A DNA stretch of 64,000 nucleotides from Candidatus Aminicenantes bacterium (GCA_014360015.1 JACIYJ010000003.1:140821-204820), one strand, 5' to 3'; shown: positions 3,064 through 53,288, numbered from the stretch's first letter. Numbers and translations are program-made. The notes: generated by a model from the letters alone, not told the origin.

Positions 3064-5634
3064 TCAATCTTCTCTGACCTTGGCTATGGAGCAGATCCGG
3101 TCTCCATCTTCCAGATGGATAAGTCTGACGCCCTGAGTGGCCCGGCTCAGAGGTCTTACTTCGGTTGTCTTGATCCTAATGACTTTGCCGCTAATGGTAA
3201 TGATCAGGAGGTCGTCTTCATTGATCCCGACCATGGCCAAGGCATGACCGATTTTATCGGTAATCTTCATGTTGATAACACCCTGTCCACCCCGATTATG
3301 CACTGGATAATCTTCTACCGGAGTTTTCTTACCATACCCCAGCTCGGAGGCAGTAAAGATATATTTATCCTCCGGCCCAACCACAATCATACTGATGACC
3401 TGGTCTTTGGGTTTTAAAGTAATGGCCTTCACTCCGGCTGCCTGACGCCCCATCGGCCTGACCTGGCTTTCCTTGAACCTGATGGCTTTACCCATCCTGG
3501 TACCGATGATGATATCGTTTTTGCCGTTAGTCAGGGCCGCAGTGAACAGGCTGGACTTTGGCCTCAGGCTCATAGCGATTATTCCACCCTTCCTGACATT
3601 CTTAAATTCACTCAGCTTTGTCTTCTTGATAAGCCCATTGTCGGTCAGAATAACCACATATTGGTCATCGCGGAACTCTTTAACCGCCAGAATGGACTGG
3701 ACTTTTTCATCAGGCTGTAATTCCAATAAGTTGGCGATGGCTTTGCCTCTACCTGAGGGCCCGGCATCAGGGACTTCCAGAGCCTTAAGCCAGTACATCC
3801 GGCCTTTGTTAGTAAAGATCAGCAGGTAAGAATGGGTGGAACCGATGAAAAGATTTTCCACCACATCCTCAGCTTTCATTTCAATGCCTTTACGGCCTTT
3901 GCCGCCCCGGCTCTGATACCTATAAGCGCTGAGAGAGGTCCGTTTGATATAGCCTGATTTAGTATAAACAATGGCCACATCTTCTTCCTTGATCAGGTCT
4001 TCAGCTTTAATTTCAGTGATGACCTCATCGCGAATTTCAGTCCGTCTTTCATCATGATATTCTTCTTTAAGCTGTTTTAGTTCATCTTTAATGATCTGCA
4101 TGACCATCTCAGGGCTCTTCAAAATCAGTTTGAGCTTTTTTATCAGCTCAGTCAGTTCTTTATGTTCCTGAACAATCTTCTGCCTTTCCAAACCGGTCAG
4201 CCTCTGCAGTTGCATTTCCAAGATGGCCTGAGCCTGGATGGCGGACAGTTTGAATTTGGTCATTAATCCATTCTTAGCTTCTTCAACTGTTTTAGAAGCC
4301 CGGATCAGGCTGATGACCGCATCAAGATAATCAAGAGCAATAAGCAATCCTTCTAAGATGTGAGCTCGATGCTCGGCTTTTTTTAGGTCGTGCTTGGTGC
4401 GTCTGATAACCACATCTCGGCGATGGGAAATAAAATAGTTCATCATCTCCAACAGGTTCAGGAGCTTGGGCTGTTTGTCCACTATAGCCAGCATGATAAT
4501 GCCGAAAGAGGTCTGGAGAGCTGTATGTTTATAAAGGTTGTTCAAAATCACTTCCGGTAGTTCACCGCGTTTTATTTCAATAACCACTCTGATACCTTCT
4601 CGATCCGACTCATCTCGAATGTCAGCGATTCCTTCTATTTTTTTATTGTTGACTAACTCGGCTATATTTTCCAGAAGCCGGGCTTTATTGACGCCATAAG
4701 GAATTTCAGTAATAACAATCCGGTCTCTCTCTCCCTTATCTGCTCTCTCTATGATGGTCTTGGCCCGGATGTGGATTACACCCTTGCCTTCCAGGTAAGC
4801 CTGACGGATGTTCTGCCGGTTAAAAACGTAGCCGCCTGTCGGAAAATCAGGACCGGGGATGAACTTCATGATTTCGTCAATGGTGGCTTTGGGATGATCA
4901 ATTAGATAAATCAGCCCATCGCAGACTTCAGCCAGATTATGCGGCGGAATGTTGGTAGCCATACCCACGGCAATACCCGAAGCTCCGTTGACCAGCAGGT
5001 TGGGAAACTTAGCCGGAAGCACTTCAGGCATCAGCAGGCTTTCGTCATAGTTCGGGACAAAATTGACTGTGTCTTTCTCAATATCGGCCAGCAGCTCTTC
5101 TGCCAGACGGGTCATCCGAACTTCGGTGTAACGCATGGCTGCTGGCGGGTCACCATCGATAGAACCAAAATTACCCTGACCGTCAACCAGCGGGTAACGC
5201 AGGCTGAAGTCCTGAGCCATCCTGACCAGAGCGTCGTAAACAGCGGCATCCCCGTGCGGATGATACTTACCTATAACATCACCCACGATTCTGGCTGATT
5301 TTTTGTAAGGCTTGTTGTGAGTGGTGCCAGTCTCCCACATGGCATACAGGACGCGGCGGTGAACAGGTTTTAGACCATCTTTGATATCCGGAATAGCCCG
5401 TCCGATGATGACGCTCAGAGCATAGTCAAGGTATGACCGCTTCATCTCTTCTTCCAGGCTGACCACAGACAGACTCTGAGCTATGGGGATAGGATGTTCC
5501 GCGCTTTTGTCAGGGGTTTTGGTTCCCTGGCTGTTGCTCTGAGGACTGGCTTTTTCTTCTGTTTTTTCTGTTTCTCCTGTTTTTGCCGGCTTGGTTTGTT
5601 TTTTCTTATCTTTCTCTTCTTTTTTCCCTGGCAT
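3064..5634 (-). CDS. gyrA: DNA gyrase subunit A with a roughly 45-aa lysine/glutamate-rich N-terminal extension
   Basis: [32 protein letters not shown] and the active-site Tyr region (RYTEVRM) are present, and the C-terminal beta-pinwheel repeats are long. The N-terminus [28 protein letters not shown] precedes the conserved start. An alternative in-frame GTG near 5466 is noted. Confidence 0.9.
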
Positions 5635-45793: not shown

Positions 45794-45819
45794 AAAAAAG
45801 GGCCTGAAATCTCAGGCCC
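45794..45819 (-). terminator. Rho-independent terminator of the ECF-sigma operon (bidirectional hairpin)
   Basis: The hairpin GGGCCTGA-AATC-TCAGGCCC at 45800-45819 is preceded on the plus strand by AAAAAA (45794-45799), which is the U-run for the minus-strand transcript ending at 45853. Confidence 0.6.
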
Positions 45820-45852
45820 CATATTTTCCCTGACAGTTGAAGATTAACATTT

Positions 45853-46239
45853 TCATTCCAGCCAGACTTTGACTGTTTCATCCTCTTCGTTAATCTCTAC
45901 GATGGCCAGAGGCCCCACTTTCTTAAGTTCTGCCAGCAATTCTTCTATATTCAGGGTGCAGCCCATGTTCTTCACTCGAACCTCTTTGTTATCAGCACAG
46001 CGAGCAAAAATCTCAACCAGAGTGATAGGCATGGTAATTTTAACTTTTTCTTTTCCGGTTTTGTTGTCTACCACGAGAACCTTGAACCATTTCACTTCCT
46101 TAGCTGGCTCGATCTTCGGGTTTTCCTGCACGGCCCTTTTGATTACCTGATAATCATCCCGGTCAATGGGATAAGAAAACTCGGCTGTCAGGAAAAGAGC
46201 CATCAGCACCAGAACTGCTATCCAGATGACTTTTTTCAT
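45853..46239 (-). CDS. Secreted small protein with a C-terminal WLE-tail domain (paralogue 1)
   Basis: A signal peptide is followed by an approximately 80-aa C-terminal domain (...KVKITMPITLVEI...LAIVEINEEDETVKVWLE) shared with 46269..47123 and 48541..48954. Confidence 0.6.
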   Translation of the reverse strand: MKKVIWIAVLVLMALFLTAEFSYPIDRDDYQVIKRAVQENPKIEPAKEVKWFKVLVVDNKTGKEKVKITMPITLVEIFARCADNKEVRVKNMGCTLNIEELLAELKKVGPLAIVEINEEDETVKVWLE

Positions 46240-46268
46240 GATATTCCTCCTCCTTTATTTTCAAATTT

Positions 46269-47123
46269 TTATTCAATCCAGATCTCAATGATGTTTCCAT
46301 CTTCTTCTATCCTCACCAACTTTTCCTTAGACTTAGCCAGGTCGCTCAGAATCCGGTTAAGGTCATAGCCTTTCTGCTTAAGGCTGGCCTTTTCTTCTTC
46401 AGGAATAGCCTGAATGGCTAAATCAGCTAAGGATAAAGGAAGGTTTATGGAAACAGTAGGAGTCTTCTTGCCTTTTTCATACATCCTGATTTTAACCAGA
46501 CGGAATGACCCGGATTTTTGCTCTTCTTGAATATCCTTAAGAGCAGCAGGGGAAATCCTCAAAAGGGCGATCTTGGCTCGATCCACCAGTTCCTGGTCTT
46601 TCTCTGTCTCGATGAGCTTCTTCAGGACTGGAACGGCTTTAGAAGCCAGGTTTTTATCTTGAAGGTAGCTCATCTTGAAGGCCGCATAATATCGGATGAC
46701 TCTTGATGGGTGAGAAAGTCTGGTTTCGAGTACCTGACCGAAACTCTTTTCTCCGCTATTAAAAAGAGTAAAGGCTAAATCAATGCTGGTAATTTCTGCT
46801 TCTTCCACCAGAGTCTGCGGCCGGTCGGGTCTCCGCAGAAATTCTTCAAACACTTTCCAGGCTTCTTTTTCTCTGCCCTTTTGCTCCGCCAAACATTTGC
46901 CCTGGTAAAAAAGAGCCTGAGAATAATAACTGCTTTTGGGGTACTGGCTCAGCAATTCATCCAGCTTTTTTTCAGCTTCCACCCATTTCTTATCAAAAAT
47001 CAGGACCTTGGCTTCCTGCAGGAGTTTCTCATCTTCCTTAGCTCCTGACTGAGCCAGAAGCTCGGAATTAGCTCCCAGGAATATGGTTAACAAAAGAATG
47101 AAAAATATGGTCCGGTTTTTCAC
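46269..47123 (-). CDS. Secreted TPR-like protein with a C-terminal WLE-tail domain (paralogue 2)
   Basis: A signal peptide is followed by helical TPR-like repeats (YYSQALFYQGKCLAEQ...), then the shared domain ...PTVSINLPLSLADL...LVRIEEDGNIIEIWIE. Confidence 0.6.
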   Translation of the reverse strand: MKNRTIFFILLLTIFLGANSELLAQSGAKEDEKLLQEAKVLIFDKKWVEAEKKLDELLSQYPKSSYYSQALFYQGKCLAEQKGREKEAWKVFEEFLRRPDRPQTLVEEAEITSIDLAFTLFNSGEKSFGQVLETRLSHPSRVIRYYAAFKMSYLQDKNLASKAVPVLKKLIETEKDQELVDRAKIALLRISPAALKDIQEEQKSGSFRLVKIRMYEKGKKTPTVSINLPLSLADLAIQAIPEEEKASLKQKGYDLNRILSDLAKSKEKLVRIEEDGNIIEIWIE

Positions 47124-47124
47124 T

Positions 47125-47919
47125 TTAAACCTCGCTTTGCTGCAATTCTTTTTTGACCAGATTTATTTTGAGCAGAAGCTGACGTTCTTCAATCATTTCC
47201 CTGACCCTCTCTAATTCTGCTTCTGAAAGGCCTGAGCTCAACTGGGTCAGTTCTAAGAACAGAAGTTCAATCTGGTCGCAGATGGCTTTGGCTTTGAGTA
47301 ATTTGACATCATCGAGCTGGGCATTCAGGTATTTTTTCTCGGTCAGTAATTGCTGAATCTTATCTCTGGTCAGGAAAATTGAGACCTCATCCTGTTTTCT
47401 GGTTTGCAGCAATTCCAGAATCAAATACTGACTGCGGTCAAGATAATCTATGGTTTCCCTTCTGGCCAGAGCTAAGTCCACTTTTTCGATAAAATCTGCA
47501 GGCACACTCACCTTTGACTCCTGACGGGCTGTCAGAAAACTGGGCTTTTGAGGCTTAATGACAAAATAGGTAAAAAAGGCGCCAAGCAGCAAACCAAAGA
47601 TAAGACCTGCGGCCAAGGGTTGCCATCTCCAGCGATAAAACCAGGAATCAACAAGTTTTTTCTGTCTTTCTTCCTCCCTCTTCCAGACTCTATCAGTGAG
47701 AATTGATGGGAGTTTATCCCAGTCTACCGTGCTCATGACTTCCTGGAGCTCAGTCTTAAAATCCTTAGACATTGAGAAAAGTCTTTTTATTTCCTCAACT
47801 TCTTTCTGGCAAGCAGAACAGTGCTTCAAATGCTCAGCCACCTCCTGCGCCCTCGATGGCGCCAGCTCGTTGCTGAGATAAGCCACCAAATCTCTTTTAT
47901 ATTTATGACATCTATTCAC
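47125..47919 (-). CDS. Anti-sigma factor with N-terminal zf-HC2 zinc finger, one TM helix and an extracytoplasmic coiled-coil domain
   Basis: The zf-HC2 motif reads HLKHCSACQKEVEE (H-x3-C-x2-C). The TM helix is LAAGLIFGLLLGAFFTYFVI. The gene overlaps the sigma gene by 4 nt. Confidence 0.75.
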   Translation of the reverse strand: MNRCHKYKRDLVAYLSNELAPSRAQEVAEHLKHCSACQKEVEEIKRLFSMSKDFKTELQEVMSTVDWDKLPSILTDRVWKREEERQKKLVDSWFYRWRWQPLAAGLIFGLLLGAFFTYFVIKPQKPSFLTARQESKVSVPADFIEKVDLALARRETIDYLDRSQYLILELLQTRKQDEVSIFLTRDKIQQLLTEKKYLNAQLDDVKLLKAKAICDQIELLFLELTQLSSGLSEAELERVREMIEERQLLLKINLVKKELQQSEV

Positions 47920-48494
47920 AGACCACCTCCAAGCTGAGGAGCCAGAATTTTCCTCAATTTTTGAATAGCTTTAAAATGCAATGACTTAACTGTTCCCACC
48001 GAAATCTGCAGCCTCTCAGCAATTTCTTCATATTTAAGCTCATCGTAATGATGAAGAATAAAAACCAGCTTCTGTTTTTCCGGAAGTCTGGCCACGGCTT
48101 TGTGGATCATTTCCTTCGGGTTAAACTTAGCCGGGTCATCACTCGGCGATGGCAGGTCAACTCGCCCCAGTTCCAGAACATCGAGGTTGTCTTTTTTTCT
48201 GGACTTCTGTCTTCTCAGAAAATCTATGCTGAGATTTCTGGCAATCTGCATCAACCAGGCGGTGAAATTTTCCTTAGGACGATAAGTTTGGATTTTTTCG
48301 TAAAGTCTCATAAAAGTCTCTTGAACCAGGTCCAGAGCATCTTCCCTGTTCCTGACCATAGAATAGGCCAGGATGAAAACTTTCTGCTGATAACCTTCGA
48401 CAATCTTCATGAAAGCTTCTTTATCTCCCTGTTTGATTCTCTCAACCAGGAATTCCACCTCAATTTCACTGATGCAGCCATTTCTCTGTTCCAT
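47916..48494 (-). CDS. RNA polymerase sigma-70 factor, ECF subfamily
   Basis: Region 2 (DALDLVQETFMRLY) and a region 4 HTH (ELKYEEIAERLQISVGTVKSLHFKAIQKLR) are present in a 192-aa protein. Confidence 0.85.
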   Translation of the reverse strand: MEQRNGCISEIEVEFLVERIKQGDKEAFMKIVEGYQQKVFILAYSMVRNREDALDLVQETFMRLYEKIQTYRPKENFTAWLMQIARNLSIDFLRRQKSRKKDNLDVLELGRVDLPSPSDDPAKFNPKEMIHKAVARLPEKQKLVFILHHYDELKYEEIAERLQISVGTVKSLHFKAIQKLRKILAPQLGGGL

Positions 48495-48540
48495 TCCGAA
48501 ACTCTGTCCTCGGTCTCAGTCCTTTGTTCTTAGTATACAT

Positions 48541-48954
48541 TCATTCCAACCACAAGAGTATTTTTTCTTCTTCACTCCAGACTTCAGCCAGAAGTCCTCT
48601 GGGTAATCTGGAAATAGCCTGGAAAAAGGCTCGGGTATCGAAATCGTAATCCAGTTTCTTAGCCCGGGGATATTCGGAGTCTTCGATGGCTTCCCTCAGG
48701 CCTTTTTTAGCCAGCCAAAGAGGCAGGGATATTCTGACCAGTTGTTCTTTGTCCGGCTCATAGACAAGCATAACCAGGCGATGCGGTCTTCTGAGATGAG
48801 AAGAGCGGTTGGACAGCCTGGCGATTCTTTCTTTAGCCTGCTGGAAATGAATTTCGGCCTTGTGGGAATCGGTTTCTACAGCCACCACTAAGCAGGAAGA
48901 GAGAGTTATCAGAATAAGTCCAATAACTGCCGCCAGCTTTATCTGGTAAACCAT
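48541..48954 (-). CDS. Putative lipoprotein with a C-terminal WLE-tail domain (paralogue 3)
   Basis: GAGGAG lies 6 nt upstream of the ATG at 48954. The signal peptide carries an L-S-S-C lipobox. The shared domain reads ...LVRISLPLWLAKK...LLAEVWSEEEKILLWLE. The longer TTG-initiated ORF-track version (to 48981) is rejected. Confidence 0.6.
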   Translation of the reverse strand: MVYQIKLAAVIGLILITLSSCLVVAVETDSHKAEIHFQQAKERIARLSNRSSHLRRPHRLVMLVYEPDKEQLVRISLPLWLAKKGLREAIEDSEYPRAKKLDYDFDTRAFFQAISRLPRGLLAEVWSEEEKILLWLE

Positions 48955-49110
48955 TTTCTTCTCCTCACATTTTATCTCCAATAGAGATAACGGAAGAAAA
49001 GAAAATAAGGTTTACCTGTGAAAAAATAACTTTCCTGACTTTAGCCTTACAGACCAGGGCTGCAGCAATTAATTGGAATTTTGAAAAGAAGGCAGCTCAG
49101 TCAGAATCAA

Positions 49111-49410
49111 TCAATATCTGCGGAAATTTCTTCTCTGCTGAGGGCCAGCTCCGGGACGGCGTTCGCCGCTTTTCTTCTCACTTTTCGGTCTGGCATCGTT
49201 GACGATGATCTTGCGGCCGTCAAATTCGGTCCCGTTGAGTCTGGTTTTAGCTTCCTGAGCCATTTCTTCGGTGGACATTTCCACGAAACCAAAGCCCCGA
49301 CCCTGCAGGATGTTAACTGAGGTAACTTCTCCATACTGAGAAAAGAGATCCTTCAGTTTCTCCTCGGTGGTCTTGTAGTTCAAGTTACCTACATAAAGTT
49401 TTAGAGACAT
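49111..49410 (-). CDS. RRM-type RNA-binding protein (glycine/arginine-rich tail)
   Basis: RNP2 is LYVGNL and RNP1 is RGFGFVEM. The C-terminus is R/G-rich. AGGAGG lies upstream of the ATG at 49410. The ORF-track N-terminal extension to 49518 is hydrophobic nonsense and is rejected. Confidence 0.85.
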   Translation of the reverse strand: MSLKLYVGNLNYKTTEEKLKDLFSQYGEVTSVNILQGRGFGFVEMSTEEMAQEAKTRLNGTEFDGRKIIVNDARPKSEKKSGERRPGAGPQQRRNFRRY

Positions 49411-49535
49411 ACAAAAAACCTCCTTGACCTCTCCAAATCGGCTTTCCCCCTCTTCAGGAAGGAGCAACTCGACTGAAAAGGCAGAAATTATGATGCCATA
49501 GAAAAAAAACAAAATCAAGAAAATTTTAAACTGTT

Positions 49536-51341
49536 TCAGGTGGGTGGATGCAGGCGTTTTTTGAACCAGACCCGGAGTTTTTCCATCTTCTCACGCTGAG
49601 CCAGAGGGGCCCGACGCCGGCAGGTGCAAATTTCTTCTGATCCTTCTGGTGCTCCCCAGCGGACCTCCACACAGTCGTTGGGATTGTAAGCCATTTCAAA
49701 AGCCTCTTTTCGCTTGAGAATTTCTTTGAGGCTCAGGGTCCAGGGCCGACCGTCAGACCTGGTGTAGGTTATTGAAAGCTCTTCAGCCAGCCTGGAAGAA
49801 AGGCTTTCCAGTCTGGCTTTTATTTTTTCCGGCGACTCAGATTTCTTAATTCTGAACCGTTCAGGATGCTTCAAAACTTTTTCCGGAAACTCCTCAATGG
49901 TATCCATGGCGATTAGCAGCCTCAGGTCACGGTTGGGCGTTGAATAGTCCTCCCAGGGACCGGTTGTCAGAAAGACAGTTGAACCAGAGGGCATGGGAAT
50001 AACATAACCCGGATGCTCCTGCATAAATTTTTCGCCAATTTCAACCGACTCCACCCTGACCAGCAACTGTTCATGGAGTGCCCGATAAAGTTCCCGGAGA
50101 GCAGTTTCCGGGTCAAGGGGTTCTGGGTTTATCAGCCGTTCCATTCGCTCGTAGAATTCTTCTGGCTGCAGTTTCAACTGTTCGAGCGAAAAATTACCAT
50201 AGTCCTGGCTGTCCTGAATTTCCTGGTTGGTCATCAACCTGAGCTTACCCCCACTGTTCGTTATTGGTCTGAAAGCTTTAAAACCTGGCTGGCCGACAAC
50301 ATTCTCTGTAGCAAAAAGAAAATTACCCTTCCAGAATCTTTTTATTCCGACAGTACCATCTGGCTGAGCGTCAACTGCCAGAAGTTCACCGGCTTTGTTC
50401 TCTGTCTGGGGCACCCAGCGAACTATGATTAGGGTGTGTCCATAAGGGTCAGCATAGACTACACCCGGGCGGAGGTGATTCCTCGAAAGAGGCAAAGGAT
50501 AATAATCAGAGACTTCTGCCGCTAACCTGGTTCTGGCTGTTCCCGAATGGACGGTATCCATCAGAAGGCGCATCAACCTGGCAAATTTTTTGACCTCATC
50601 ACCCGGTCTGGTCGGCAGCTCATTGGTCAGCCAGCGACCGCAGGTTGGGGCCTGAGTCAACGAGCCGCGACTGCATTCATGGAAACCAAAAGGCAGTCTG
50701 TTTTTCCAGGCAAAATAGGCTCTAAGGAAAAAAGGATTATCCGCACAATCTGGCTCGAGACTAAGGGCCCCATTGTCTTCAGATAAGCCCAGATGATTAT
50801 GAAGGAAATTTCTCCCGGGATCACGGAGGATGGAATGTAAATTTGGCCAGGAATCGTTCTCATCAGCACCATGAAAAAGTGCCTCTATCCAGGCTGAATA
50901 AAGGTTTTCCTCAGCTCTGGTCCAGCTTTTTTCTGCTTTCCAGAAAACACCGGATTCCGGGAGCCCTGGATGAAATGGAGAAACTTCAATGGTCCGAGAG
51001 AAAACAACTTTACTGCCAAGACAAATCTCCAGCCTGTATTGACCAGAAGTTACCACCCTTCCTTGCCACCATTGCCAGAAAGGCGGCCCGCCTCCTTTCT
51101 TTACCAGGGTTAATTTCTCCGCTTTTAGTTGGAGTCCTTTGAGATTGATTTCCAGATTTTTTTCGGGAATCTCTTTTTCGGAAGAAATAATCAATCTGAA
51201 GGTCATTCCAGGTGACAAACGGGCAGGAGAAACCAGAACAGATATTTCCTCCCGGGCAGACCAACCTGGCGTAAAGTTAACAGCAAGAAGAAGCCCGAAC
51301 AGCAGCAGTCTGGTTTTAATTTTAATCACTCGGTCTCTCAC
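49536..51341 (-). CDS. Large secreted hypothetical protein (601 aa)
   Basis: A signal peptide is present. No confident domain assignment was possible. A possible Cys...His...Asp arrangement (HECSRG ... YGHTLII ... DAQPDG) is only weakly reminiscent of transglutaminase-like folds. Confidence 0.5.
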   Translation of the reverse strand: MRDRVIKIKTRLLLFGLLLAVNFTPGWSAREEISVLVSPARLSPGMTFRLIISSEKEIPEKNLEINLKGLQLKAEKLTLVKKGGGPPFWQWWQGRVVTSGQYRLEICLGSKVVFSRTIEVSPFHPGLPESGVFWKAEKSWTRAEENLYSAWIEALFHGADENDSWPNLHSILRDPGRNFLHNHLGLSEDNGALSLEPDCADNPFFLRAYFAWKNRLPFGFHECSRGSLTQAPTCGRWLTNELPTRPGDEVKKFARLMRLLMDTVHSGTARTRLAAEVSDYYPLPLSRNHLRPGVVYADPYGHTLIIVRWVPQTENKAGELLAVDAQPDGTVGIKRFWKGNFLFATENVVGQPGFKAFRPITNSGGKLRLMTNQEIQDSQDYGNFSLEQLKLQPEEFYERMERLINPEPLDPETALRELYRALHEQLLVRVESVEIGEKFMQEHPGYVIPMPSGSTVFLTTGPWEDYSTPNRDLRLLIAMDTIEEFPEKVLKHPERFRIKKSESPEKIKARLESLSSRLAEELSITYTRSDGRPWTLSLKEILKRKEAFEMAYNPNDCVEVRWGAPEGSEEICTCRRRAPLAQREKMEKLRVWFKKRLHPPT

Positions 51342-51575: not shown

Positions 51576-53288
51576 ATGAACAAGAAATTTATCTGGCTGA
51601 TAATTATTTTCTTCTTTCTCATCCTTATCGGTTTGCTCGTTTTTTCCTTACTAATCTTTAACATTGCTCCTAAGGAAGTACAGGTCGAAAGCAATTCTTA
51701 TCTGGAAATAAAACTCGAGGGCCGGCTGGAAGAGTATTCTCCGGTGGTGCCGTATATGGAATTTCTCCAGGGGAAGACAATTTCTCTTTATGACACCTGG
51801 ATGAACCTGAGGAAGGCCAGTCTTGACCCAAGAATCAAAGCTGTAGTTTTGAAGTTCGGTCTCCTCGATTCAGACTGGGCCAAAATTGAAGAGCTTCGCC
51901 AGGCTGTTTATGATTTCAGGAAATCAGGAAAGCCGGTAATCGCCTATTTTGAAGAATCGCCTGATGCTGATAAAGAATATTATCTGGCCACAGCCTGCGA
52001 CAAAATTATTCTCCACCCACTCGGCTGGCTCGGAGTAAACGGACTGGCCAGCTATGTGCCGTTTTTTAAGGGAACGCTCGATAAACTCGGGATCAAGGCG
52101 GAATTCGAGCACATTGAAGAATACAAAACCGCCTACAACCAGTTTACCGAAAAAGGTTTCACCACAGCTCACCGAGAGATGATGGAATCAATCTATAACG
52201 ACATTTTCAACTATTATTTTAAGCAGATAACCGCTGCCCGTCATAAGACCCCTGAAGAAATGAAAAAGTTGATAGACCGTGGCTATTTCCAGGGAAAAGA
52301 AGCTGTGGATTGCGGTCTGGTTGATGGGTTGGCCTATGAAGATCAGCTACTTGAAGTGATGAATCTCAAGAATATAAAACAACTCAATAAAATTTCGAAC
52401 GAGAAATACGCCAAGGTCAACCCCGCTTCCTTTGGATTAAATCGGGGCAAAAAAGTGGCTCTAATTTTCGCCACAGGGACAATTCTGAGTGGTGAAGAAC
52501 AGGTAGTAGCCCTGGGCAGTGAAACTTTTACTAGGTGGCTCCGAGCAGCGGTTAAAGATAAATCCATTGCTGCTATTGTCGTCAGGATTGACAGTCCCGG
52601 TGGTTCGGCTGTTGGTTCGGATATCATCTGGCACGAGCTGGTCAAAGCCAGGGGTGAAAAACCCGTAGTCATTTCCATGTCCGGGCTGGCCGGTTCGGGT
52701 GGCTACTGGATGGCTCTCGGTGGCCATAAAATTATCGCCCAGCCCCAGACCTTAACGGGGTCTATCGGAGTAATAGCTGGAAAATTCAGCTTCGAGGGCC
52801 TGATGAAAAAGCTCGGGATCAACACTGAAAAAATAGTTCTGGGCAAGGAAGCAGATGCTTTTTCTGTTTACCGGAAATTTACTCCAGAAGAAAGGAACAT
52901 TCTGAAAAACCAGATTCAGTCTATTTATCAACAGTTTCTGGAACGGGTAGCTTCATCCAGAAATCTCTCCATCGAAGAAGTTCACCGAATTGGTCGGGGG
53001 CGTGTCTGGACAGGAAATCAGGCTAAGGAACTGAACCTGGTTGATGACCTGGGTGGTTTGAACCTGGCTATTGAGTCGGCCAAGAAAATGGCTGGCATAC
53101 CAGCTGAAGAGGAAGTTAAGTTGGTCATCTGGCCTAAAAAACGCACCTTTTTTGATTTTTTGATGGGCAAGGAGACAGAACTTAGTTATTTCCGGGCTCA
53201 GGCTGAAATCATCACCGGCTATGCCAGGTTAATAAAATATTCCTCACCACCCAGAGTCTGGACTTTAATGCCCTTCTGGCTCTATTAA
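51576..53288 (+). CDS. sppA: Signal peptide peptidase SppA, 67K type (protease IV)
   Basis: An N-terminal TM anchor is followed by two ClpP/crotonase-like halves. The catalytic region is SMSGLAGSGGYWMALGGHKIIAQPQTLTGSIGV. GGAGG precedes the ATG. Confidence 0.85.
   Translation: MNKKFIWLIIIFFFLILIGLLVFSLLIFNIAPKEVQVESNSYLEIKLEGRLEEYSPVVPYMEFLQGKTISLYDTWMNLRKASLDPRIKAVVLKFGLLDSDWAKIEELRQAVYDFRKSGKPVIAYFEESPDADKEYYLATACDKIILHPLGWLGVNGLASYVPFFKGTLDKLGIKAEFEHIEEYKTAYNQFTEKGFTTAHREMMESIYNDIFNYYFKQITAARHKTPEEMKKLIDRGYFQGKEAVDCGLVDGLAYEDQLLEVMNLKNIKQLNKISNEKYAKVNPASFGLNRGKKVALIFATGTILSGEEQVVALGSETFTRWLRAAVKDKSIAAIVVRIDSPGGSAVGSDIIWHELVKARGEKPVVISMSGLAGSGGYWMALGGHKIIAQPQTLTGSIGVIAGKFSFEGLMKKLGINTEKIVLGKEADAFSVYRKFTPEERNILKNQIQSIYQQFLERVASSRNLSIEEVHRIGRGRVWTGNQAKELNLVDDLGGLNLAIESAKKMAGIPAEEEVKLVIWPKKRTFFDFLMGKETELSYFRAQAEIITGYARLIKYSSPPRVWTLMPFWLY

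Follow-up and report, generated by a model that had tools for sequence, protein, structure and literature searches.

The locus described here lies in a window of 64,000 nucleotides from Candidatus Aminicenantes bacterium (GCA_014360015.1 JACIYJ010000003.1:140821-204820), the window being the whole stretch of DNA that was analysed, and comprises five co-directional genes on the minus strand (Table 1). In operon order these encode G1, an extracytoplasmic function (ECF) sigma factor, an anti-sigma factor, G4 and G5. The distances between successive genes are 46, -4, 1 and 29 nt, the anti-sigma gene beginning within the last 4 nt of the sigma gene and G4 following the anti-sigma gene after a single nucleotide. 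The initial annotation had described five minus-strand genes with these gaps and a single terminator at about position 45800, and the open reading frame (ORF) calls, the measured distances and a GC-rich hairpin followed by a T run agree with it on each point. The predicted promoter lies upstream of the operon of its own sigma factor and presents the two elements of an autoregulatory ECF promoter, AAC at -35 and CGT at -10, about 16 nt apart. Motifs of this form are common in promoters of ECF sigma factors; the present one resembles the SigW type and is the sole match in the window. As judged from its layout, the block is shown to be one operon, tightly coupled, with a single predicted promoter and a single predicted terminator, and of the autoregulated ECF sigma/anti-sigma type.

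Table 1. Features of the five-gene operon, with positions counted from the first letter of the window (HMM, hidden Markov model; TM, transmembrane segment)
Feature	Position	Strand	Description or basis
Operon	48954-45853	minus	Five co-directional ORFs in the order G1, sigma, anti-sigma, G4, G5
Putative ECF-type promoter	48989-49012	minus	AACCTT-N14-CGTT, upstream of G1
G1	48541-48954	minus	137 aa, predicted lipoprotein
G1 domain	48544-48792	minus	Residues 55-137, family HMM
ECF (group IV) sigma factor, SigW-like	47916-48494	minus	Pfam, TIGR02937
Anti-sigma factor, zf-HC2, single TM	47125-47919	minus	Pfam and TM prediction
G4	46269-47123	minus	284 aa, exported; TPR and HEAT-like repeats, then C-terminal domain
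G4 domain	46272-46514	minus	Residues 204-284, family HMM
G5	45853-46239	minus	128 aa, exported; short N-terminal motif, then domain
G5 domain	45856-46104	minus	Residues 46-128, family HMM
Intrinsic terminator-like hairpin	45799-45820	minus	9 pairs, 6 of them GC, then TTTTTATT (T run)

The sigma factor contains the sigma-2 and sigma-4 domains only (Sigma70_r2, 74.1 bits, E=7.8e-21; Sigma70_r4_2, 65.6 bits, E=3e-18), as is characteristic of the ECF (group IV) class, scores 130.2 bits against TIGR02937 (cut-off 42.9) and has no TM. Its nearest solved relative is Bacillus subtilis SigW (5wuq, E=4.3e-25), and its scores fall below the cut-offs of the SigW equivalog models NF007223 and TIGR02948 (127.7 bits against 209 and 115.3 against 243), of the sigma_PG0214/GFO_1088 family NF058625 (110.8 bits against 130) and of Sig70_bacteroi1 (125.0 bits against 126.4), comparable scores being obtained with SigW and with many other ECF models. 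The anti-sigma factor matches zf-HC2 (PF13490) at residues 4-38 (30.7 bits, cut-off 22.2) and carries the zinc-finger motif H30-x3-C34-x2-C37, visible as HLKHCSAC. A single TM at residues 101-121 is followed by a helical extracytoplasmic domain of about 140 aa without a family match in Pfam or NCBIfam. By its motif and by the position of its gene directly after the sigma gene the protein is assigned to the zf-HC2 (class I, ZAS-like) type, and binding of zinc and of the sigma factor is predicted. The earlier description of an ECF sigma factor with a single-pass anti-sigma factor bearing an H-x3-C-x2-C finger is borne out by the Pfam matches, the TM prediction and the motif.

The three non-regulatory proteins had been called a lipoprotein, a tetratricopeptide repeat (TPR) protein and a small exported protein, and the features found are in agreement: one N-terminal hydrophobic stretch in each of G1, G4 and G5, a lipobox in G1 and TPR_6 in G4. 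The ATG of G1 is preceded by a GAGGAG Shine-Dalgarno sequence and its orthologues begin at the same methionine. Residues 18-21 (LSSC) fit the lipobox pattern [LVI][ASTVI][GAS]C, the cysteine is invariant in 24 orthologues, and on these grounds G1 is a predicted lipoprotein. G4 has one repeat above the Pfam cut-off (TPR_6, 27.6 bits against 26.3), together with weaker matches to the TPR_14, YbgF and BamD models and to HEAT_2. The Pfam scan revealed no enzymatic domain in G1, G4 or G5, and G4 has protein-interaction repeats only. Outside its domain G5 has the motif D-x-Q-x-I-K-K-A-V, in which D29, A36 and V37 are invariant among orthologues and Q31, I33 and K35 reach a conservation of 90% or more; the region (residues 24-38, window 46125-46170) is modelled with low confidence. 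Such a short motif resembles a docking peptide and is conserved as would be expected for one.

These three proteins share a tail of about 80 residues, noticed in the initial annotation, ending collectively in VKVWLE, IEIWIE and ILLWLE. Pairwise BLASTP related G1 to G5 (E=9e-5) and G1 to G4 (E=0.006), the G4-G5 comparison not being significant. Orthologue alignments were then built for each protein and compared profile to profile (hhalign). The G5 family aligned to the last residue with that of G1 (95.8% probability, E=7.7e-9) and with that of G4 (93.3% probability, E=2.8e-7), and G1 and G4 reached E=0.0068 only, so that the homology of all three tails is transitive, via G5. An HMM of the combined tails matched exactly the G1, G4 and G5 ORFs in the window and nothing else (E from 1e-17 to 1e-35). 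AlphaFold2, run on the isolated domain with an input of 50 diverse members of the family, returned a compact fold (pLDDT, the predicted local distance difference test, 94.5; pTM, the predicted template modelling score, 0.77) with the predicted topology hairpin-helix-hairpin-helix-hairpin (bb-a-bb-a-bb), and the model of full-length G5 presents the same elements at lower confidence. Helix 1 of G5 ends with Cys81, which 90% or more of the orthologues retain; many have a second cysteine near residue 95, but this one is not conserved, so a disulfide is not obligate. The non-significant G4-G5 BLASTP and the modest G1-G4 profile value would be compatible with a chance or compositional likeness of charged, beta-rich C-termini, but this explanation is effectively refuted by the two hhalign results with alignments reaching the last residue, by the exclusive HMM matches in the window, by 1,284 matching representatives in an unfiltered search (described below) and by the confident compact fold. 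The shared tail is a real domain.

The window is assigned to Candidatus Saccharicenans/Aminicenantes, protein P0001 being identical to G5. The distribution of the cassette was established by a scan of one genome per species, which found G5 relatives in 130 genomes, and 80 loci were kept. Nearly all of these are titled Aminicenantes, Saccharicenans or Acidobacteriota, and most of the others are mislabelled metagenome-assembled genomes (MAGs). ORFs were called in the 80 loci and searched with the domain HMM and with each of the five proteins of the window; 66 loci have at least 2.9 kb upstream. In all 66 the sigma factor, the anti-sigma factor, G4 and G5 are encoded on one strand in this order, with G5 closing the cassette and with G5 identities from 86% down to 41%. 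Metagenomic contigs with Pfam calls present the same gene arrangement with differing flanks. Every member of the uncultured class Aminicenantia that was examined has the cassette, which marks the class as a whole, and the linkage of G4 and G5 homologues to a sigma/anti-sigma pair, proposed earlier as a check by gene neighbourhood, holds throughout. The exception is G1, located directly upstream of the sigma gene in 43 of the 66 loci; the remaining 23 have either nothing or relics in its place, and the triplication of the domain, initially presented as the setting of the pair, is not a fixed feature.

Two sets of observations belong with these loci. Between promoter and sigma gene, one locus (L006, around 3340-3540) has an ORF of 49 aa in which a lipobox is joined directly to ...KEKMLLWLE, and four more (L051, L072, L077 and L083) have short ORFs of 14-30 aa ending in ...EENKILIWLE; L042 is also listed with remnants of the G1 end. 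These short ORFs may be either decay relics or retained mini-peptides of the last hairpin. In addition, the full cassette, with G5 identities of 43-73%, was identified in many MAGs titled 'uncultured Eubacteriales bacterium' and in one titled 'Terriglobales' (for example L013, L019, L029 and L032), whose taxonomic labels are probably wrong.

The promoter motif takes the form [GA]AACCTT-N(13-14)-[CT]CGTA across the loci. A relaxed pattern is present at the equivalent position in 66/66 related loci, and a strict one gave 56 matches on both strands of 1.05 Mb of cassette-flanking sequence (about 16 kb per genome), every one of the 56 at the cassette position, with 0.7 matches in shuffled sequence. 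Where G1 is present the motif lies 416-564 nt upstream of the sigma gene, that is just ahead of G1, which would place G1 inside the autoregulated transcript. Where no G1 was detected the distance is 37-394 nt (382-394 nt in four of these 23 loci, 230 nt or less in the other 19). Neither the 1.05 Mb nor the window contained a further target promoter, which fits the operon's own products being its main output and more than regulators alone.

The domain reaches far beyond this operon. When 1.84 billion cluster representatives were searched with the HMM, unfiltered, 1,284 matched at E<=0.001, 202 of them at E<=1e-10. The 152 best-scoring representatives divide into 77 with a single domain, of the G5, G1 or G4 types, and 75 with two tandem copies; 62 of the latter are 170-200 aa long, and the inspected sequences begin with signal peptides. 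In two-domain proteins the first copy is internal and ends in W-K/R-D/E, so the strictly C-terminal position noted at the outset is valid for G1, G4 and G5 and is not a rule of the family. Two-domain loci were fetched with a degenerate DNA pattern for the conserved peptide GDAEFVTVE. This gave 56 metagenomic loci, of which 50 encode the domain, and in 38 of these 50 a pair of two-domain paralogues lies side by side. Only 3 of the 50 contain an ECF sigma gene, in each case at a distance of at least 1.7 kb, and four further Pfam-annotated contexts of two-domain proteins also have no adjacent sigma gene. The members of this subfamily are secreted proteins of about 185 aa, found almost always as adjacent pairs of about 190 aa and 173 aa in high-GC DNA of many environmental metagenomes (L088-L141, with L094 987-2077 and L108 6291-7387 as examples; L003 5926-7072; L004 5917-7150). 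Clustering of neighbours revealed no recurrent neighbour of these pairs, the high-GC DNA giving many spurious ORFs.

A third architecture, domain, SHOCT-like PF22746, domain, was identified in proteins of 240 aa (L144 2066-3239; L145 3-1026), in one small cluster. The gene overlaps the end of an upstream gene for a DUF2089 Zn-ribbon/HTH regulator. Unlike the cassette proteins, this form has no signal peptide, and is presumably cytoplasmic, and it accompanies a different regulator class; DUF2089 and SHOCT-like systems have been placed in membrane-stress signalling (PMC11237479). An identity of the tail itself with the SHOCT-like or DUF2089-C element was considered and rejected, PF22746 being a separate helical element of 32 residues between the two domain copies in protein P0261. 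By gene context the domain has been joined to transcription regulators at least twice, and most members stand alone. The suggestion that it is dedicated to an ECF sensing module does not hold for the family, most of which consists of secreted two-domain pairs without an adjacent sigma gene, plus the presumed cytoplasmic form beside DUF2089. Every locus examined has at least two copies of the domain, either in one protein or in adjacent paralogues, and because of this the domain probably works as a pair.

The domain was described initially as unnamed, with a profile search as the check. Pfam and NCBIfam gave no family at threshold for the domain in the five window proteins, ten distant relatives, 50 diverse domain sequences (scanned at E<=10) or seven consensus sequences, the sigma, zf-HC2 and TPR matches lying outside it. 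Sequence-profile searches of the PDB with the G5-orthologue and whole-family alignments returned noise only, the fold model has no neighbour in the PDB, the source names of the domain proteins are all 'hypothetical protein', and no description of the cassette or of the domain was found in the literature. The statement stands for families at threshold and takes one caveat, a weak, collinear and sub-threshold resemblance to DUF4252 (PF14060), the only named lead that the profile matches provide.

It is quite possible, if doubtful, that the domain is a diverged and shortened DUF4252 by true homology. The cassette would then be the Aminicenantia counterpart of the Bacteroidota operons of ECF sigma factor, anti-sigma factor and DUF4252 protein, a known but uncharacterised kind, whichever function the exported proteins have. 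To our knowledge, no function has been established for DUF4252. It was the only Pfam family matched by more than one of the 50 diverse sequences (2/50, E>=0.017). For consensus sequences the values were E=0.017 with 15.7 bits (whole family) and E=0.0094 with 16.5 bits (two-domain subfamily); in each case helix 2 and the last hairpin match the middle of the profile (positions 52-90 of 125) in collinear register. However, these scores lie below the gathering score of 23.9 bits and cover about 35 of the 125 positions, falling short of membership over most of the profile; G1, G4 and G5 gave no match at E<=1, and the domain has about 80 residues that end the protein, against 125 profile positions. 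The scores of the window sigma factor against sigma_PG0214 and Sig70_bacteroi1 lend some support to the relationship, but this protein scores similarly with SigW and many other ECF models.

The gene context is the other argument for this ancestry. In Porphyromonas gingivalis, DUF4252 genes lie inside ECF sigma operons (PG0214-0218 and PG0985-0987; PMC10101095, PMC10434189). As in the cassette, an ECF sigma gene of similar type is followed there by a small membrane protein and by at least one exported protein of unassigned function, and the genes are co-regulated as a block (PMC10101095). The cassette differs in the addition of the TPR/HEAT fusion G4 and in having always at least two domain-bearing proteins. 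A tblastn search of plasmids with the two-domain consensus gave no match, and no DUF4252 gene was found beside the sigma matches on Bacteroidota 'plasmid' records, where only triads of sigma factor, small TM protein and helical protein, FecR-type systems and orphan sigma factors were identified. Examples of the triads are two Parabacteroides/Bacteroides records (L148 3944-5455; L149 3944-5415), in which the ECF sigma genes most similar to that of the window precede genes for a small protein with one TM and for an exported, helical protein of some 155 aa, the last two not resembling the domain studied here. Both records are labelled plasmids and look like chromosome fragments, carrying groEL, hisS and valS.

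ECF sigma/anti-sigma pairs are a major bacterial route for envelope sensing, and we know of no input signal for most ECF groups. The operon is of a known kind, an ECF sigma/anti-sigma operon with exported accessory proteins, and the accessory domain is unnamed, widespread and without a solved structural relative. As for what the proteins do, the reading preferred here, tentatively and at somewhat less than even confidence, is an analogy with known systems: G4 and G5, with G1 where present, would be periplasmic partners of the anti-sigma factor that tune its sensitivity to regulated proteolysis, with feedback through autoregulation. In the periplasm G4, which adds a TPR/HEAT scaffold to the domain, and G5, which adds a conserved short helix, would pair via their domains. 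The pair would bind the helical region that the anti-sigma factor exposes there and serve as co-sensors or as modulators of its stability, comparable to RseB with RseA or CpxP with CpxA. If a signal from the envelope disturbed this complex, the anti-sigma factor would become open to regulated proteolysis, the sigma factor would be released and transcription of the whole operon would rise, and newly made G4 and G5 would reset the system. As both are predicted to be made from the autoregulated transcript, they would also give feedback. The lipoprotein G1 would be an optional third partner. The same three proteins are possibly also the operon's output.

The evidence that points to this co-sensor model is the coupling of the operon (the 4-nt overlap and the 1-nt gap) with its single promoter and terminator; the invariant order of sigma factor, anti-sigma factor, G4 and G5 in all 66 loci while flanks vary; the homologous tails with their confident domain model and a copy number of at least two; the presence of interaction repeats in G4 and of no enzymatic domain in any of the three proteins; the second, independent link to a regulator in the DUF2089 context; and the invariant linear motif of G5. 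Several points weigh against the model. G1 is dispensable, being absent or decayed in 23 of the 66 loci, copy number is the sole source of the proposed pairing, and the promoter motif is restricted to the cassette in the flanks and the window searched. Moreover, for most members of the domain family neither a sigma nor an anti-sigma gene lies nearby, which suggests that the basic activity of the domain is not anti-sigma binding as such.

These points connect with the main functional alternative, in which the regulon has G1, G4 and G5 as its output: non-enzymatic envelope effectors, structural, chaperone-like or ligand-sequestering, switched on under stress and without effect on the anti-sigma factor, co-transcribed with the regulators as oatA is with sigV-rsiV. 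The free-standing secreted relatives without an adjacent regulator, the strict promoter matches found ahead of the cassette and nowhere else, and the repeated loss of G1 with the regulators kept would all fit. On the other hand, the promoter scan covered about 16 kb per genome, so that further regulon members are possible; invariant linkage, together with translational coupling to the gene for the anti-sigma factor, would be expected more of subunits of a signalling complex; the proteins carry only interaction modules; and the domain is also regulator-linked beside DUF2089. This alternative is considered somewhat unlikely, and the two roles do not exclude each other, since CpxP has both.

Several known systems can be compared with the cassette. 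In the autoregulated rpoE-rseA-rseB-rseC operon of Escherichia coli, RseB, encoded directly after the single-pass RseA, binds the periplasmic domain of RseA and gates its proteolysis, a functional analogy to the cassette taken from established knowledge. Differences are evident: no match to the LolA-like RseB was found and there is no relation to it in sequence or fold, the anti-sigma factor of the cassette belongs to the zf-HC2 type and its periplasmic domain is all helical, and two or three partners share one domain. The sigW-rsiW pair of B. subtilis supplies the closest solved sigma factor, and its anti-sigma factor is likewise a single-pass zf-HC2 protein; SigW promoters are of the AAC-N16-CGT type, as is the cassette motif. 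Unlike the cassette, sigW-rsiW is not known to have co-transcribed exported partners, and the window sigma factor lies below the equivalog cut-off. CpxP and Spy are small non-enzymatic periplasmic proteins that are both products of a stress regulon and negative modulators of its sensor; they have an unrelated all-helical fold and act in a two-component system rather than on a sigma/anti-sigma pair. In the SHOCT-linked form beside DUF2089 (PMC11237479) the same domain occurs, twice in one protein, again in company with a transcription regulator.

A wider proposal, unlikely when taken as a whole, is that the domain founds a new superfamily with a fold absent from the PDB and working as an obligate pair, which in Aminicenantia would form a two- or three-subunit periplasmic co-sensor of a zinc-finger anti-sigma factor and elsewhere would serve DUF2089/SHOCT regulators or act alone. 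If this proposal were true, uncultured phyla would share a widespread signalling module that has so far gone unrecognised, and a confirmed DUF4252 link would connect ECF operons in Bacteroidota with those in Acidobacteriota and supply a structural model for the two. The domain deserves a family definition, since it comprises at least 1,284 clusters (50% identity) whose members are all annotated as hypothetical. A cassette invariant across a class of uncultured bacteria, with a predictable promoter and a small, confidently modelled domain, is tractable for heterologous reconstitution.

The surroundings of the cassette include three further genes. A 601-aa protein with an N-terminal hydrophobic segment and no Pfam match at E<=0.001 is encoded at 49536-51341 on the minus strand, between an RNA-binding protein gene and a divergent peptidase gene. 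The first of these, of the RRM type (49111-49413, minus strand), is located just upstream of the cassette, as it is in L001, in L142 and in about a dozen loci without G1. The second encodes an S49 (SppA-like) peptidase (51576-53288, plus strand) and is found near the cassette in the window and in L001, L002 and L142.

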